64,000 nt of DNA from a virus (Duplodnaviria; Caudoviricetes). The position numbers and the translations under genes are program-made. The notes beneath the pieces are model-generated. The model had not been told where the DNA came from and searched no databases. It saw only the letters and a program-made list of their open reading frames with translations. This document shows, piece by piece, positions 1,329 to 31,447 of this stretch. Position 1 is the first letter of the stretch; the number at the start of each line of letters is the position of its first letter. The stretch covers positions 90,612 to 154,611 of the IMG/VR virus record IMGVR_UViG_3300033066_000802, one strand, 5' to 3'.

Positions 1329-4300
1329 TTAAGCTAAAGTATTCACATAATTCTTAAAAGCTGTAACATCTATAACCTTCCTCCCATTAATTAATCTTTT
1401 ACTATTTTTAGCGATAACCTCATTATTTTCAGCTATCTTGAATGCACTCTTACTATCATTTATCGGTGCTGTCAACGAACCTAAAATATAATCATCTGGT
1501 TTACCAATTAATACTGGATAAAACACAGCGGAATATATATCATATATGGTTTTTCGTTCATTATTTTTTAAAGTCGATTTCAAATATTTCTCTACATATT
1601 CTAATTGTTTGATTGGTGTCATCTCATATAAATCCTTTGTTGTTGTACCTAATTTTATTGCAGTACTTTCTAAAAACTGTATATAACCTGTGGCGGTACT
1701 TGCTCGATTTGTTGTATATGGTATATCTTTACCACCATCACCATATTGCGCTTTAGACCTAATACCACTTTCTGCATATATAACACGAACAAGATCTAAT
1801 TCATCAACGCCAAGATTAGTAGATATTTGTTTCATTTTATCACCAAAACCAATATTCGTTTCTTTAACAATATTATATCTATCCAAAACCCTTTGTTTAA
1901 TTGGTGTTTTAGTTGTTATTAATTCTGTTGGCGTATAACCACCTAATAAAGACTCATTTGATTGTATATCAATACCATAATCATCTGGAGTTACGCTGGA
2001 ATCATTAACATAACCAAAGAAAGATATACCCAAAATTTTGTCAAAACAACCCAAGTATATATTATTAATATTCTTACTATTAACATTCAACCCTGGCACA
2101 GCAAATGTATTTAAATATTGATACTCTTTAATATTATTATAATTATTAACATTTACGTTGTATATATTATCCTCAGCTTTAGGGTCTGTTGCTATATATT
2201 TCATATATATGATATCATAAGCCCTCCAGAAATTTGAAAAATCACTTGTTTGTGTGTCAGTAAAATTAATTTTTGGTGCCGTATTTGTCTTTGTATTAAA
2301 TACACCGTCACCACCTGTATTATATTTACCATTTATATCCGTAATAATTAATTTTTGAGTAACCAACGAAGTTGGTTTTAAAACATTAATAACATCATCA
2401 ATCGATTTCGCCTCTGTTAAAGCTGTTAATGTTTTCCATATTGGTTTTTCTGGGTTAACTGGATATTCATTATATAATTCACTTAAAGAGTGTTCTTTAT
2501 TCGTGTCAAAATATAGTTCATTTTCAAATGATAATGAATTAGCTCTCAAATTCAATGCCATATCAACCATATACGTTATAATAATATTTGGCTTAACAGG
2601 TTTATTTCCGTATTCCAAATAAGCGAAGCGCTTTGCACGATTATATAAAACCATTAACACCATTTTATAAATCTCAGTATTAGCTGGAAAATACTTACTT
2701 AAGAATGAATATAGTATTTGATTACCCTGAAATTCACCCATAGTATATGATTTTTGACTCATTTGATAAAATGTACCATAAGGGTTACTTACAGTGTTTC
2801 TTCTATTTTGTTTAATAGTTCCAACAGTATAATCATTATCAGTATCCGATGCCTTGGTTGTTGTTATTTTTGCTATAGTATCAGCTATCTGCCTAATAAT
2901 ATCAGATTTATTAGTTGTTTTATTAGCTATTGGTTGTCTGGTACCTTTAAATGTGGTTACCATATTATTTGGTGTAACATTATGTTCAACATTAGTTATC
3001 CAATAACTACCATCAAATAATGGAACATCTTTCAAATAGAAATATGTTAATGGTTGTATCATAGCGTTACCCATTGATTGTACTTGGCAAGTATATGATC
3101 TGGTTTCCATTAATGAATATAAATTACCCGAAGCCACAGTCTGTATACCCTTCGCATCTTTATTAACGAGATTAATAAAAGCATTAATTGATTCCTCTGT
3201 ATTAGCGAATTGACTCGTATCCAATTTAACATTACTAAACATGCTTTGATTTTTGTTACCAAAATCCACAACAAATGAAGTTACATTACCATTTTTAACA
3301 TCACTTGGAATTGTGTGTACTTCAGTCAAACCAAAAGGTTGTCTGGTTGTATCAATATCTAACGGGAATGAGTTCATTAAACTAAGATTTGATGAACCAT
3401 TCAGCTTTTTTTCAAAAGATGATGTGTGATTTATCCACTGTAAAATAAATGATGGGTTTGAGTCAACTCTTTCAGTATTAGAATGCACACCAAATAAATT
3501 ATCAGCGTATTTATCTATATTATTATTAACGTCAGAAAAAGGTGATAAATAGTCAACATAACTGTTCATCGGATGTAATAAAAAGTCATTCTTAGTAGCT
3601 ATATCACTAAATAAACTATATACCGACTTATTAGTAATTTCACTATTAACAACATTGTTATTATGATTATCAATACTATTAAATTTAAGTTCCAAACTAT
3701 CACCTAAACTAAGCACATCAATTAATATATCACCACCGATATCTCTATTACCTCTATCAACAATGTTAACATATTCTATCAAATGTTTAGGCATTTTACT
3801 ATCAAAAATACTCGTAACGGAATCACCAACGTTTTGAGGGTCATTTATATCACCATCTTTAAATAAAAAGTTATAAAATAACGACCCATTATTGACGTCC
3901 AATTCTGAATTAACATTTACATCAATATAATCCTGTGGATATGTATGAATTGTTTTAGGTTGATATGATATATATTTATCATATAAGTTTTTTATATTAT
4001 AATATGTTTTACCTTTTAATTCATCAACAGAATCCTTTATATGTAATTTACTTATAAGTGAATTAGGATCTTTAGGATCAAGTTTTGTTAAACCCTCTAA
4101 TCTAACTTTTATAGCGTCAAGGTGGTTATTAACACCCATTATATTTTGATCGTAAAAATCCCCAACAAATTTCACTAAATATTCAGATATTTGTTTATCC
4201 AACTCTTTATTTGATAACACATTAAGATTAAATAAATATTTAATAACAGCACCTAATTGATCGTTGTTTTGTATCTCAAAATCAATAGCTTTTACTATTG

Positions 4301-20622: not shown

Positions 20623-21051
20623 ATGATCAAAACCCCGAAAAAAAAGACAAAACCAAAATCAACCAAATCTACAGGTAAGATTGGTAAATTATTTAAAAAG
20701 ATGAAAGGTACCTCAAATCTTGAATATAATTTTGCAAAATTATTGGATAAATTAAAAATTTCATATATACAACACTATACATTCAAAAAAAGAGAATTTG
20801 ATTTCTTATTAGTTGATTATAATGTCCTGGTTGAAACACATGGTTGTTTCTTCCACTGTTGTAAAGAAGATAAGATTGAACCGAAGTATCCATTCCAAAG
20901 AAATAACATAAAGAATGATACTCATAAGGCTAAATTAGTTAAATTTGATCCAACCTATAAGTTATTAGTTGTCTGGGAACATGAAATGAAAAATTCAAAA
21001 CTATTGAAGGAAAGAATAAATTCATTTTTAGATAATTTACTTACCGATTAA
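20623..21051 (+). CDS. Vsr/DUF559-like endonuclease
   Basis: SNLE...FDF...LVETHGCFFH...ND..K...LLVVWEHE. Confidence 0.8.
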   Translation: MIKTPKKKTKPKSTKSTGKIGKLFKKMKGTSNLEYNFAKLLDKLKISYIQHYTFKKREFDFLLVDYNVLVETHGCFFHCCKEDKIEPKYPFQRNNIKNDTHKAKLVKFDPTYKLLVVWEHEMKNSKLLKERINSFLDNLLTD

Positions 21052-21919: not shown

Positions 21920-22810
21920 CTAAATACCTAATTTTTCTTTTAGATCAGATATAACCCATTCAGTATTATTTTTTATATCATTCTCCCAATACCTTATTAA
22001 TTGAATATTATTATCGACACATAGTTTATTTTTAAAATTATCGTTTTTAAGTGTGATTTCTTGAACTTTATATTTCGTATCTTTATATTTAGTATTTGGA
22101 TTACAGTGGTAGAAATCCCCATCAACTTCAATTAATATTTTATATTCTAACAGGTAATAATCAAATAATCGTTTTTTAAATTCAAATTGTGATTCAAATA
22201 AAATATTTAAATTATTCAATATATTATCAAAAATTATTTCTAATTTTGATTTTTTTGATGATTGTTTACTTTTTAACCATTTAATTCTTTTTTCCGATTG
22301 TTTATTTCTTTTTTCGATATTTGAAATCCATGAATTAATTTGCCAATCTCTATTTTTTTGTTTTTGTTCGTCAGTTCTTTTAATATTTTTAGATAATAAA
22401 CTTTTAGATATATTATTTCCTCTTTCCAAATTACTTCTTGTTTTTTCAGAATAAATTTTAACTCTTTCATCAGTATCTTCAGTAAGTCCCTTATTCCATA
22501 TAGCCAATAAACCACTTTGATACATTTCCGTCTGTTTTTGATGCGATTTTTCAAGAGATGTTGGATTGTGACCCCAATTATTTTTTATCCTGGAAATATG
22601 CCCTTGCTTGTATTCTCTATAACCAAGAACATCACCTAAATATTTAGTAGTTTCACCACAACCGCACTTACAAGTTGGTTTATCCGACTTTAATTTATAT
22701 TTTAAATAAATTTCCTCAGATGATATCTGGTGTTTACGACTCATATGTTTTCTAAAAGAATTATAATTATTAAATTGTTTTTCACAAATATTACAATAAA
22801 AAAGTTCCAT
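21920..22810 (-). CDS. free-standing homing endonuclease: C2H2 zinc finger + CxCGCG + DUF559/Vsr-like nuclease
   Basis: CNICEKQF...HMSRKH; CKCGCG; SKLE...FDY...IEVDGDFYHCNP...ND..KN...LIRYWE. Confidence 0.8.
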   Translation of the reverse strand: MELFYCNICEKQFNNYNSFRKHMSRKHQISSEEIYLKYKLKSDKPTCKCGCGETTKYLGDVLGYREYKQGHISRIKNNWGHNPTSLEKSHQKQTEMYQSGLLAIWNKGLTEDTDERVKIYSEKTRSNLERGNNISKSLLSKNIKRTDEQKQKNRDWQINSWISNIEKRNKQSEKRIKWLKSKQSSKKSKLEIIFDNILNNLNILFESQFEFKKRLFDYYLLEYKILIEVDGDFYHCNPNTKYKDTKYKVQEITLKNDNFKNKLCVDNNIQLIRYWENDIKNNTEWVISDLKEKLGI

Positions 22811-28678: not shown

Positions 28679-31447
28679 ATGGCTAATAAAATACCAGTTG
28701 AAATAAGGGCTAAAGAAATACTATTAAATTATAATGGAACAAACGATTACCTTCTCGAATTAAAGTCGACTTTAATAAACAAAAAGACTTTACCATTTAC
28801 TCCAAATCTATGTACCTATATCATTAATAATCACAAAGTTAAGCCAGTAATAATTAATAACAAATTTTTATTACATAAGAGTTTAAGAAAATATTTACAA
28901 TTACACTATAAATTACAATTTGAACCAGAATTTATCTACGTCAATAAACTATTGACAAGGAAAAAAGATAATTTACATATTTGGGGATGTTTTTCAGATG
29001 ATTGTAAGTATTATTTTTCAATCTTCATTGATAAGAATGCAATGAAGAAGACTAAGAATGTTGAATTACCATCTTTTGATGATTATAAAAGACCGCCACT
29101 ACCACACCAATTACCAGCTATAAAAACATTATTAGAAAATGATAAATTTATTCTGGCTGATGATATGGGTTTAGCGAAAACAAGTTCAGCTATTGTTGCT
29201 GCAATTCTTGGAAACTACCAAAGAATTCTTGTTGTATGTCCAGCCACACTTAAACTAAACTGGAAAAAAGAAATATCCATATATGATGACCCAAGTAACA
29301 TATCTGTTATTGAGGGTTCGGATTTTACATTCAAAAAATGGACAATCATAAATTACGATATACTTAAAAACTTCCACTTTTTAAAGGAAAAGGGTGAGGA
29401 TGAGGTTAAACCGTCAATAATAGATTTTTATAAATATGACCTTATCATTGCTGATGAGTGTTTTCCATATAAAACTTTAGTGGATACCGATAAAGGTAAA
29501 TTAGAAATTGGTAATATAGTTGAAAACTGTTTAGATGTTAAAATATTATCATATAATTTAAAAAATTCTAAATTAGAATACAAACGAATTAATAGATGGA
29601 TTAAAAAAGAAAGTAACACTATATTAAAAATATCACTTCAAAACGAAAAATTTATAGAGTGTACACCTAATCATAAAATATATGTTAAAGATAGGGGTTA
29701 TATTAGAGCAGATAAAATATTAAAAAATGATGAATTATATACATTGCAAAAACCCAGTGACAAAAAATTGTCAATTCTGTGGAAAACAGATGATTCTAAC
29801 AGGGAAACGGAAGAAAAATCGATTCTGCGATACTGTTTGTTCAGCAAAATGGAAAATGAACCAACCAGAGATAAAAAAGAAAATTCACAATCCAGAAGTT
29901 TACAAAAAAGCAAAAATATCAAATATAGAAAATTACAAGAAAAATCCACAACGTGCAAAAGATTCATCAGATCGTATGAAAAAAAACAACCCAATGATGA
30001 ATATAGAAACGTTGGAGAAAATGAAAAATTCATTGAAAGGGAAAACCTTTTTATCAAGAGGTGGGAACGGAAAAACAACAATACAAGAACAAAAAATGAA
30101 AAATATTTTGGGTGTTGGCTGGGAACTACATTACGCAATAAAAACATCGATGGTAAAAACAATGTTCAAATCCTTACCGCCAGCATATCAAGTAGATTTA
30201 GGAAACGAAGATTTAAAAATCGCAATAGAGGTGGACGGAAAAACACATCTAACAAAAAAATGGAAATTTCTGGACAAAAGAAAAACGGAAGTATTAGAAG
30301 CGTTAGGGTGGAAAATATTGAGATTTTGGAATCAGGATGTGGACGATCAAATAGAAAATTGTTTGACGAAGATAAACGAGTTTATAACATCGAAGTAGCC
30401 GATAACCATAATTATTTTGCTGATAATATATTAGTTAGTAATTGTCATTATTTGAAAAACGCTTCAGCTAATCGTACCAAATTATTCAACGACTTTGCTT
30501 TAAAAATCAATACCAGGTGGCTTTTAACAGGTACACCTATTACAAGTAAACCAATTAATTTATATAATCTTTTATTATTATGTGATTCACCTTTGGCTAA
30601 TAATTGGGTTAGTTATGTTAGAAGGTACTGCGCTGGTAAACAATTCAATAGAAAGGGTACCACCCAAAAATATTGGGTAACTGATGGAGCAACAAATTTG
30701 GAAGAACTAAATGATTATATTAGTGATATATTATTACGTAGGTTAAAAAAAGATTCTGTTGAGTTACCACAAAAAACGGTTAAACCAATCTTCTTACCGT
30801 TATCCTCATCAAAAAGGTATAATGAATACATGATTGAATACCAGGAATGGTATAATGATATGGTTGAAAATGGTCTTGAGCCAAAACCAACGGAACATCT
30901 GACCCAACTGATTAAAATCAGACAATTATTATCTGAGGATAAAATGAGTAATACAATTAAGATTGCAGAAGATCTCATTGAAGAAGGTCATAAGGTAATC
31001 ATATTTTCTTGTTTCACCAACACCATACGTGGTATTCATGAGCATTTTGGTAAAGAATCCGTATTGATTGATGGTGCTATAAACTCTAAAAATAGAGATA
31101 TTGCTGTGGAAAAGTTCCAGAATGATAAGAAAGTCAAAGTATTTTGTGGTAATCTTATTGCCGCTGGCGCTGGCATTACTTTAACCGAAGGTACAATTGT
31201 AATATTTAATGACCTTGATTGGTTACCAGGAAACCATGCCCAGGCGAGTGATCGAGCCTATAGAATAGGTCAAACAAAAGATGTACATATTATATATATG
31301 TTGATTGATGACACATTGGATAATATGATGTATACAAGACTTCAAGAGAAAATAAAGGAAATCAATACTGTTATGGGTGATGAACATACGGAAGATGTAT
31401 CACTACTTAATGCTGTGGTTAGTAATTTATTAGTGGAAAGTAAGTAG
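28679..31447 (+). CDS. SNF2/HARP-like superfamily 2 helicase containing an intein
   Basis: LADDMGLAKT (I), VVCPA (Ia), DE|CH (II, split by intein), LTGTP (III), GAGITLT (V), QASDRAYRIGQ (VI). Confidence 0.93.
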   Translation: MANKIPVEIRAKEILLNYNGTNDYLLELKSTLINKKTLPFTPNLCTYIINNHKVKPVIINNKFLLHKSLRKYLQLHYKLQFEPEFIYVNKLLTRKKDNLHIWGCFSDDCKYYFSIFIDKNAMKKTKNVELPSFDDYKRPPLPHQLPAIKTLLENDKFILADDMGLAKTSSAIVAAILGNYQRILVVCPATLKLNWKKEISIYDDPSNISVIEGSDFTFKKWTIINYDILKNFHFLKEKGEDEVKPSIIDFYKYDLIIADECFPYKTLVDTDKGKLEIGNIVENCLDVKILSYNLKNSKLEYKRINRWIKKESNTILKISLQNEKFIECTPNHKIYVKDRGYIRADKILKNDELYTLQKPSDKKLSILWKTDDSNRETEEKSILRYCLFSKMENEPTRDKKENSQSRSLQKSKNIKYRKLQEKSTTCKRFIRSYEKKQPNDEYRNVGENEKFIERENLFIKRWERKNNNTRTKNEKYFGCWLGTTLRNKNIDGKNNVQILTASISSRFRKRRFKNRNRGGRKNTSNKKMEISGQKKNGSIRSVRVENIEILESGCGRSNRKLFDEDKRVYNIEVADNHNYFADNILVSNCHYLKNASANRTKLFNDFALKINTRWLLTGTPITSKPINLYNLLLLCDSPLANNWVSYVRRYCAGKQFNRKGTTQKYWVTDGATNLEELNDYISDILLRRLKKDSVELPQKTVKPIFLPLSSSKRYNEYMIEYQEWYNDMVENGLEPKPTEHLTQLIKIRQLLSEDKMSNTIKIAEDLIEEGHKVIIFSCFTNTIRGIHEHFGKESVLIDGAINSKNRDIAVEKFQNDKKVKVFCGNLIAAGAGITLTEGTIVIFNDLDWLPGNHAQASDRAYRIGQTKDVHIIYMLIDDTLDNMMYTRLQEKIKEINTVMGDEHTEDVSLLNAVVSNLLVESK
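29459..30442 (+). mobile_element. intein (328 aa) inserted in the helicase DECH motif
   Basis: Block A CFPYKTLVDT, block B CTPNHKIY, block F VYNIEVADNHNYFA, terminal VSN followed by +1 Cys; excision restores IIADECHYLKN. Confidence 0.93.
29727..30398 (+). CDS. DUF559/Vsr-like homing endonuclease overprinted in the +1 frame inside the intein
   Basis: 223 aa with its own ATG and TAG; CQFCGK...FCDTVC zinc motif, NPM/NUMOD-like linker, VDLG...IAIEVDGKTH...DKRK...LEALGWKILRFWN. Confidence 0.9.
   Translation: MMNYIHCKNPVTKNCQFCGKQMILTGKRKKNRFCDTVCSAKWKMNQPEIKKKIHNPEVYKKAKISNIENYKKNPQRAKDSSDRMKKNNPMMNIETLEKMKNSLKGKTFLSRGGNGKTTIQEQKMKNILGVGWELHYAIKTSMVKTMFKSLPPAYQVDLGNEDLKIAIEVDGKTHLTKKWKFLDKRKTEVLEALGWKILRFWNQDVDDQIENCLTKINEFITSK

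Follow-up and report, generated by a model that had tools for sequence, protein, structure and literature searches.

We found that a helicase gene in the genome of a virus of the class Caudoviricetes carries an intein into which a second gene, for a putative homing endonuclease, is nested in the +1 frame of the same strand, with third-base choices in the nuclease gene that leave the helicase frame free of stop codons. The window, by which we mean the whole stretch of 64,000 nucleotides analyzed (IMG/VR virus record IMGVR_UViG_3300033066_000802, positions 90,612 to 154,611), is the final 64 kb of a 154,611-bp single-contig genome with a GC content of 32%. We assign a probability of roughly 0.87 to this reading, namely a helicase intein with an overlapping +1-frame nuclease gene and selection on both frames. 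The parts of the locus, in coordinates of the window, are listed below; the structural statements rely on AlphaFold2 (AF2) models and their predicted local distance difference test (pLDDT) values.

28679..31447, + strand: precursor of an SNF2-family helicase (N-extein, intein, C-extein), 922 amino acids, stop included (open reading frame (ORF) listing and Pfam).
29459..30442, + strand: intein of 328 amino acids, helicase residues 261-588, in motif II, with the junctions ...IIADE^CFPY...ILVSN^CHYLKN.
29459..29758, + strand: N-terminal half of the Hint splicing domain (intein residues 1-100), predicted as beta-strands (pLDDT ~90).
29705..29732, + strand: probable internal translation start, seen in the sequence as an A/T-rich leader, a TAA two codons upstream in the nuclease frame, and then ATG ATG.
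29727..30398, + strand: homing-endonuclease gene, 223 amino acids plus TAG, wholly inside the intein and in the +1 frame relative to the helicase (Pfam DUF559, AF2, Foldseek).
29759..30283, + strand: intein-frame read-through of the nuclease gene, a linker of 175 amino acids predicted as coil (pLDDT ~30 over intein residues 101-275).
29769..29840, + strand: zinc-ribbon-like module of the nuclease (C15, C18, C34, C38), with four invariant Cys and two short strand pairs (pLDDT ~88).
30228..30275, + strand: predicted catalytic core of the nuclease (E168, D170, H174, D183), invariant in the family alignment and aligned to the sequence of 3hrl.
30284..30442, + strand: C-terminal half of the Hint domain (intein residues 276-328), with confident AF2 strands at 279-291 and 307-327.
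30284..30395, + strand: dual-coding stretch, in which nuclease residues 186-223 (LGWKILRFWN...) lie over the strands of the Hint C-terminal half; both AF2 models are confident here.

Each helicase-frame codon in the overlap is composed of the third base of one nuclease codon and the first two bases of the next. Because of this geometry, a stop appears in the helicase frame only where a T-ending nuclease codon precedes a codon starting with AA, AG or GA (hereafter, a risk junction). Such junctions accounted for 84 of the 223, and the preceding third base was A in 44 cases, G in 29, C in 11 and T in none, whereas T-ending codons were common at non-risk junctions (43/139). A first-pass annotation, made from the letters of the window, had listed 11 junctions at which the ORF uses a C-ending synonym where T would create a stop. 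All 11 pairs are present, and they are exactly the two-fold NNY codons at risk junctions (C 11, T 0). Its statement that T-ending codons are used freely elsewhere in the ORF also holds, since the same amino acids at non-risk junctions are encoded by 32 T-ending and 8 C-ending codons (Fisher test, P = 1.6e-6). While the 11 cases are real, they undercount the extent of the bias: a T-ending synonym was possible yet avoided at 50 risk junctions, including those of Ile (ATA in 7/7) and Gly (GGA or GGG in 7/7).

We compared the observed absence of stops with two randomizations of 100,000 trials each. When synonymous codons were resampled according to genome codon usage, the helicase frame acquired a mean of 28.2 stops (minimum 15), and no trial left it open. 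When synonymous codons were permuted within the ORF, the mean was 12.1 stops and the minimum 3. The analytic probability of no stop was 10^-18.9 under genome usage and ~10^-16.6 under the ORF's own usage at non-risk junctions. A genome-wide preference for C before AA or GA, which would have spoken against the first-pass annotation, was not seen. Throughout the genome, 49% of codons before risk dinucleotides end in T, and the trend for NNY codons is the opposite one, with 15% C before risk dinucleotides and 22.5% C before non-risk ones. Over 122 crude genes, the equivalent frame contained an average of 16 stops per 100 codons, and its longest stop-free run in any other gene was 64 codons. The two free-standing DUF559 genes of the window, which had been proposed as a comparison, contained 22 stops in 143 codons (20623-21051) and 58 stops in 297 codons (21920-22810) in that frame. 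Furthermore, the third + frame over the nuclease stretch contains ~37 stops, and therefore low T content alone cannot explain the open helicase frame.

The genetic code treats the two alternative registers differently. Codons NNT and NNC always encode one and the same amino acid, and for this reason a register in which stops start at the third nuclease position can be cleared while the nuclease protein stays as it is. In the other alternative register, 9 TGA stops, arising from Met followed by K, N, T, I or M, would be unavoidable, and two of them fall in the conserved RMK motif region. The +1 register is thus the sole alternative register that can be cleared at no amino-acid cost to the nuclease.

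The helicase ORF matched the Pfam families SNF2-rel_dom (2e-21) and Helicase_C (6e-15), and its match to Intein_splicing (PF14890) scored 44.7 bits, above the cutoff of 35.8. On sequence grounds, we identify the insert as a class 1 intein at the Walker B/motif II codons (DE^CH) of the SNF2 helicase, presumably capable of splicing. Its terminal residues are those of class 1: the intein starts with C1 (CFPY...), ends with ...VSN and is followed by C+1. The residues C1, T69, H72 and N328 were unchanged across 12 relatives, where T69 and H72 form the TxxH of block B. The C-terminal half of Hint, which contains the strand VRVENIEILE, blocks F and G and the terminal SN, has further residues invariant in these relatives (Y309, E312, N316, N318 and F320). 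A Foldseek search with the predicted intein retrieved the RecA, DnaE, DnaB and DnaX mini-inteins (E ~1e-6, template modelling (TM) score by target <=0.87). In the model, the N- and C-terminal segments together form the Hint fold, and the frame-0 read-through of the nuclease gene is a basic, predicted-disordered linker of 175 amino acids, of which 75% are polar or charged, with a net charge of +27. The host gene is one stop-free ORF of 922 amino acids, and not the two separately translated ORFs of a fractured gene with a split intein. The splicing frame is uninterrupted, and the nuclease ORF between the Hint halves is intact and lies on the same strand in a different frame; these features place the element among inteins with an out-of-frame nuclease.

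The nested ORF matched Pfam DUF559 (PF04480) with 2e-13 and 50.5 bits (cutoff 20.6), and its match in PDB sequences was the DUF559 structure 3hrl (E = 2e-4). Its AF2 model (pLDDT 79.6) consists of a Cys4 ribbon, a helical region and a C-terminal alpha/beta domain. In Foldseek searches, the model matched the catalytic domain of I-Bth0305I (3r3p; E = 7e-4, TM 0.70 by target) and the DUF559 protein 3hrl (TM 0.81), and Vsr (1cw0) ranked lower. The residues E168, D170, H174 and D183 may correspond to the EDxHD composite motif of PMC3239194. From the sequence and the model, we regard the nested ORF as a zinc ribbon joined to a Vsr-like EDxHD/DUF559 endonuclease with putative cleavage activity. The element is single-copy in the genome. 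An antisense ORF of 154 amino acids is also open across the nuclease gene (29698-30162, - strand) and is probably a by-product of skewed composition.

We analyzed which frame is constrained by comparing substitutions in codon alignments. Over the 175-codon middle, substitutions were most frequent at nuclease position 3, followed by positions 1 and 2 (for example, 0.39, 0.17 and 0.13 at positions 3, 1 and 2, respectively, between relatives L001 and L004), and the most variable position, nuclease position 3, is intein position 1. This order indicates that the nuclease is the protein-constrained frame under purifying selection. The intein frame over the linker appears to drift freely except for stop avoidance; codon positions 2 and 3 of the linker are set by the nuclease protein, and little freedom is left for the linker peptide. 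The overlap with folded Hint sequence is limited to the last 38 nuclease codons and ~11 at the nuclease start. Across nuclease residues 186-223, change is slowed at every codon position when close pairs are compared (0.17/0.11/0.06), a pattern that fits a role for both products in this stretch.

We next considered relatives of the nuclease gathered from viral contigs (13 loci), metagenomes (80), prokaryote genomes (12, mostly metagenome-assembled genomes of Anaerolineales) and GenBank phage records, among which three Vibrio phage records were studied in detail. A locus was called nested when the nuclease lay within an ORF of at least 340 amino acids, in the same relative frame, with no stop. 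The nuclease was nested in the same register in 99 of the 111 loci with a nuclease match, and single-linkage clustering grouped the nested loci into 85 clusters at 90% identity and 63 at 70%; their GC contents are 26-67%. Across them, T was found at 0 of 6182 risk junctions and at 3539 of 12824 non-risk junctions. An intein hidden Markov model (HMM) detected Hint halves on both sides of the nuclease in nearly all nested loci. In the Vibrio phages 159E43-1b (L014, OZ196825.1), CP-T1 (gp10; L015, JQ177061.1) and 1.088.O (L016, MG592463.1), an unannotated +1-frame DUF559 homolog lies inside the helicase coding sequence. An open second frame is confined to the out-of-frame arrangement, because relatives of the other two kinds have stops in that frame. 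Free-standing family members (L022-L024, L070, L086, L087, L094, L099 and L100) contain 5-30 stops, and canonical in-frame inteins of Phage_Mu_F-like head proteins (L103, 1636-3651; L104, 1708-3876) contain 25-27. The latter two carry the RMKxNNPM motif, the Cys ribbon and the DUF559 core, with the junctions HPxC^...HN^CRC.

The host genes of the family include SNF2 and ResIII/DEAD helicases and giant methyltransferase-helicases. An out-of-frame element is also present in a clamp-loader/DnaX-like AAA protein (L068, 2280-4358), and terminase large subunits serve as hosts in L097 (2202-4361) and in L101 and L102, the last two assigned by their shared junction ...GIDIAW^C...HN^CEE. Junctions in the family are DE^C...(H/S)N^C(H), or lie three residues later at DExH(R/K/Y)^C. 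The later position (DExH-R/K/Y^C, versus DE^CH in the window) was observed in the helicases of L013, L028, L053, L031-L036 and L060. Judging from these sequences, the family appears to move among different P-loop NTPases at Walker B codons. When the whole helicase gene was used as a DNA query against the phage collection, no match was obtained, and relatives were found at the protein level only. In the closest relatives of the helicase, which share 62-73% identity with it over the C-extein, the DEAHYLKN site is uninterrupted and no intein is present, and family inteins are also found in far more distant helicases than these. The intein-less alleles with a DE^AHYLKN site (L017, L018 and L020) are candidate targets of the nuclease.

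Some loci deviate from the common layout. In L021 (204-1921), a 1-nt frame switch at the A-run of RMKxNNPM fuses the helicase/Hint frame to the C-terminal half of the nuclease and breaks both genes; this may be either a dead allele or a homopolymer assembly error. In L010 (1603-4590), which is near-identical to L003, both frames end early after ...VESIEI, and L029 has one stop in the helicase frame. L010 and L029 are possibly degenerate copies or contig artefacts.

The two free-standing genes used for comparison above bring the DUF559/Vsr-like superfamily members of this phage to three separate ones, and both lie at a distance from the nested nuclease:

20623-21051, + strand: free-standing DUF559/Vsr-like gene.
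21920-22810, - strand: free-standing DUF559/Vsr-like gene.

As donors of the nested nuclease, these genes were rejected (BLASTP E = 0.12 and 2.4; missed by the family HMM).

We propose the following mechanism. The +1-frame nuclease gene occupies the part of the intein that is taken up in canonical inteins by an endonuclease domain in frame, and production of the helicase would require frame-0 ribosomes to read through the nuclease gene to the C-terminal Hint strands. The Hint halves joined by this read-through would then allow the intein to splice itself out. A T at the third position of a nuclease codon before AA, AG or GA would truncate the helicase and be removed by selection. The nuclease itself would cut intein-less alleles (DE^AHYLKN) and drive homing.

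An assembly or sequencing frameshift, by which a nuclease that is really an in-frame intein domain would appear in a second, artefactual frame, was already doubted in the first-pass annotation, and we give it next to no weight. A 1-nt frame switch that fuses both frames does exist in L021, a short metagenome contig. However, an artefact in the window needs two compensating errors, and these would not yield a second frame that is stop-free over 223 codons. It is refuted by recurrence, as the register is common to the 99 loci, which come from independent assemblies and include annotated helicase genes of cultured Vibrio phages. The argument that an in-frame nuclease has no need of an open second frame is borne out by the stops in the truly in-frame relatives L103 and L104. 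Equally negligible, in our assessment, is the possibility that an A-rich, T-poor ORF or one with foreign codon usage is open in other frames by chance. The nuclease ORF is only 21.6% T, and in GC-rich relatives a few permutations reach 0 stops. This explanation is nevertheless already refuted by the within-ORF permutation, which preserves composition and never fell below 3 stops, by the stops in the third frame and by the T-ending codons at non-risk junctions. The earlier suggestions that the overlap is long-standing and that both frames are selected thus gain support. The layout is kept at 31-52% nuclease amino-acid identity, and the second suggestion needs one nuance, in that the nuclease is constrained as a protein and the intein frame over the linker is apparently constrained to openness only. 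It is very unlikely, though less so than the two artefacts above, that the nuclease ORF is a relic in the course of decay, with selection left on the helicase frame alone. Under homing-cycle theory, decay is expected once an element has been fixed, and five relatives (L044, L045, L054, L061 and L098), with one stop in the nuclease frame and an open intein frame, match this prediction. In the window, by contrast, the ORF is intact, its model is confident, and it retains all 49 residues that are invariant in the alignment columns of 12 relatives, including E168, D170, H174, D183 and the four Cys; the substitution pattern of the family is also that of a constrained protein.

How the nuclease is expressed is a separate question, for which we somewhat favor independent translation from the ATG at 29727 by internal initiation, behind an A-rich leader without a Shine-Dalgarno sequence. 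Only 2 of the 122 crude gene calls have AGGA, GGAG or GAGG upstream, and leaders in this genome are rich in A at positions -12 to -10 and -3 to -2, an initiation context compatible with a Bacteroidota-like one. A search of the 430 nt before the nuclease start for the Bacteroidota-type promoter motif TAnnTTTG gave no match. Each of the three Vibrio phages has GAGG 7-9 nt upstream of the nuclease ATG. The alternative is slippage, by ribosomes or by RNA polymerase, out of the helicase frame and into the +1 frame, which would produce a fusion of N-extein, Hint N-terminal half and nuclease with no internal initiation. Runs of A8 and A7 occur within the ORF, the start lacks a Shine-Dalgarno motif, the nuclease frame is open for 50-100 codons upstream of the match in many relatives, and L021 is a natural frame-fused variant, though perhaps an assembly error. 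We nonetheless consider slippage improbable. The TAA lies two codons before the ATG in the nuclease frame, so that the shift must fall downstream of it, and the conserved zinc ribbon starts directly after the start codon. The start codon is also at the Hint/linker boundary in most relatives, and the GAGG of the Vibrio phages resembles a Shine-Dalgarno sequence.

Three points weigh against our overall interpretation. No ribosome-binding motif can be recognised at the internal start, although the same is true of almost all genes in this genome. The GAGG of the Vibrio phages also follows from conserved Asp-Glu-Val codons and is weak evidence. The 99 nested loci are related by descent and do not represent 99 independent origins of the layout. 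A more speculative extension, which we hold to be unlikely, although less so than slippage, is that the overlap is functional and not merely tolerated. Helicase-frame ribosomes passing over the internal start could limit the nuclease and tie its potentially toxic dose to helicase expression, or the linker could hold the precursor to DNA through its positive charge or control splicing. The +1 register may also have been selected family-wide as the only one that the code lets be cleared at no cost to the nuclease. Common descent would account equally well for the family's use of a single register.

The locus is among the cleanest available demonstrations of an overlapping frame kept by selection, with 223 codons open against ~26-28 stops expected, by third-base choice alone. 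The analysis also exposes a large and mostly unannotated family of at least 85 distinct members, including those of cultured Vibrio phages such as CP-T1. Gene callers overlook these nucleases, and inteins classed as "mini" or "decaying" may be armed. Members of this one nuclease family are free-standing, out of frame or in frame, and the family supplies natural intermediates that connect free-standing nucleases with fractured genes and with canonical in-frame inteins.

Several known systems resemble parts of this arrangement. Dassa et al. 2009 (PMC2677866) described fractured genes in which split inteins flank a free-standing Vsr-like or GIY-YIG endonuclease gene. The nuclease superfamily and its place in the intein are the same, and the hosts are mainly phage DNA-metabolism genes. 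The 3' end of the nuclease gene overlaps the C-terminal intein part by 6-69 bp in fractured genes and by ~112 nt here. In those genes the host is divided into two trans-splicing ORFs, whereas here a single ORF reads through the nuclease gene. Taylor et al. 2011 (PMC3239194) defined the EDxHD family with I-Bth0305I (PDB 3r3p), the best structural match of our nuclease, which likewise has a C-terminal Vsr-like catalytic domain after an N-terminal DNA-binding region; the conserved E, D, H and D residues of the two proteins may correspond. However, I-Bth0305I belongs to a group I intron and has NUMOD motifs, while the nuclease studied here belongs to an intein and has a Cys4 zinc ribbon and helices, and the identity in the fold match is ~22%. 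Arsenault et al. 2025 (PMC11855218) reported that an insertion in a phage methylase (ShiLan domain) hides an HNH endonuclease out of frame. As here, a homing nuclease lies out of frame under an uninterrupted host frame, but that insertion lacks a splicing domain and is probably retained in the protein, whereas the read-through here is flanked by an intact Hint domain.

The closest precedents are inteins. In a preprint on actinobacteriophage inteins (Gogarten lab, bioRxiv 10.1101/2025.01.02.630785), an endonuclease VII-like nuclease in a separate frame ("frame 3") was described in GC-rich actinophages, along with antisense VSR-like and LAGLIDADG intein nucleases, the antisense LAGLIDADG case being credited there to Gorbalenya 1998. 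As here, the splicing frame is contiguous, a second ORF, that of the nuclease, overlaps it between the Hint halves, no structure is recognisable in the read-through, and annotation pipelines miss the layout. A search of that preprint by stop-codon and synonymous-site terms found no codon-level analysis. According to the same preprint, VSR-like nucleases are otherwise tied to inteins only in split form; the in-frame inteins of L103 and L104 contrast with this link to split or antisense forms. A second preprint (bioRxiv 10.64898/2026.09.14.751524) reports an out-of-frame nuclease in a cyanobacterial dnaX intein, and by a term count it makes no mention of Vsr, HNH or stop codons, nor, by a separate search, of DUF559. 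The kind of layout has thus recently been described already. In contrast to the endonuclease VII-like frame 3 and antisense VSR-like nucleases of the actinophages, the nuclease here is Vsr-like/EDxHD, on the sense strand and in the +1 frame, and its hosts are the Walker-B sites of helicases, a clamp loader and terminase. At a GC content of 32%, openness of the second frame needs active maintenance, unlike in the GC-rich actinophages. What is new here is that an EDxHD nuclease on the sense strand, in the +1 frame, is combined with Walker-B target sites and an AT-rich genome.

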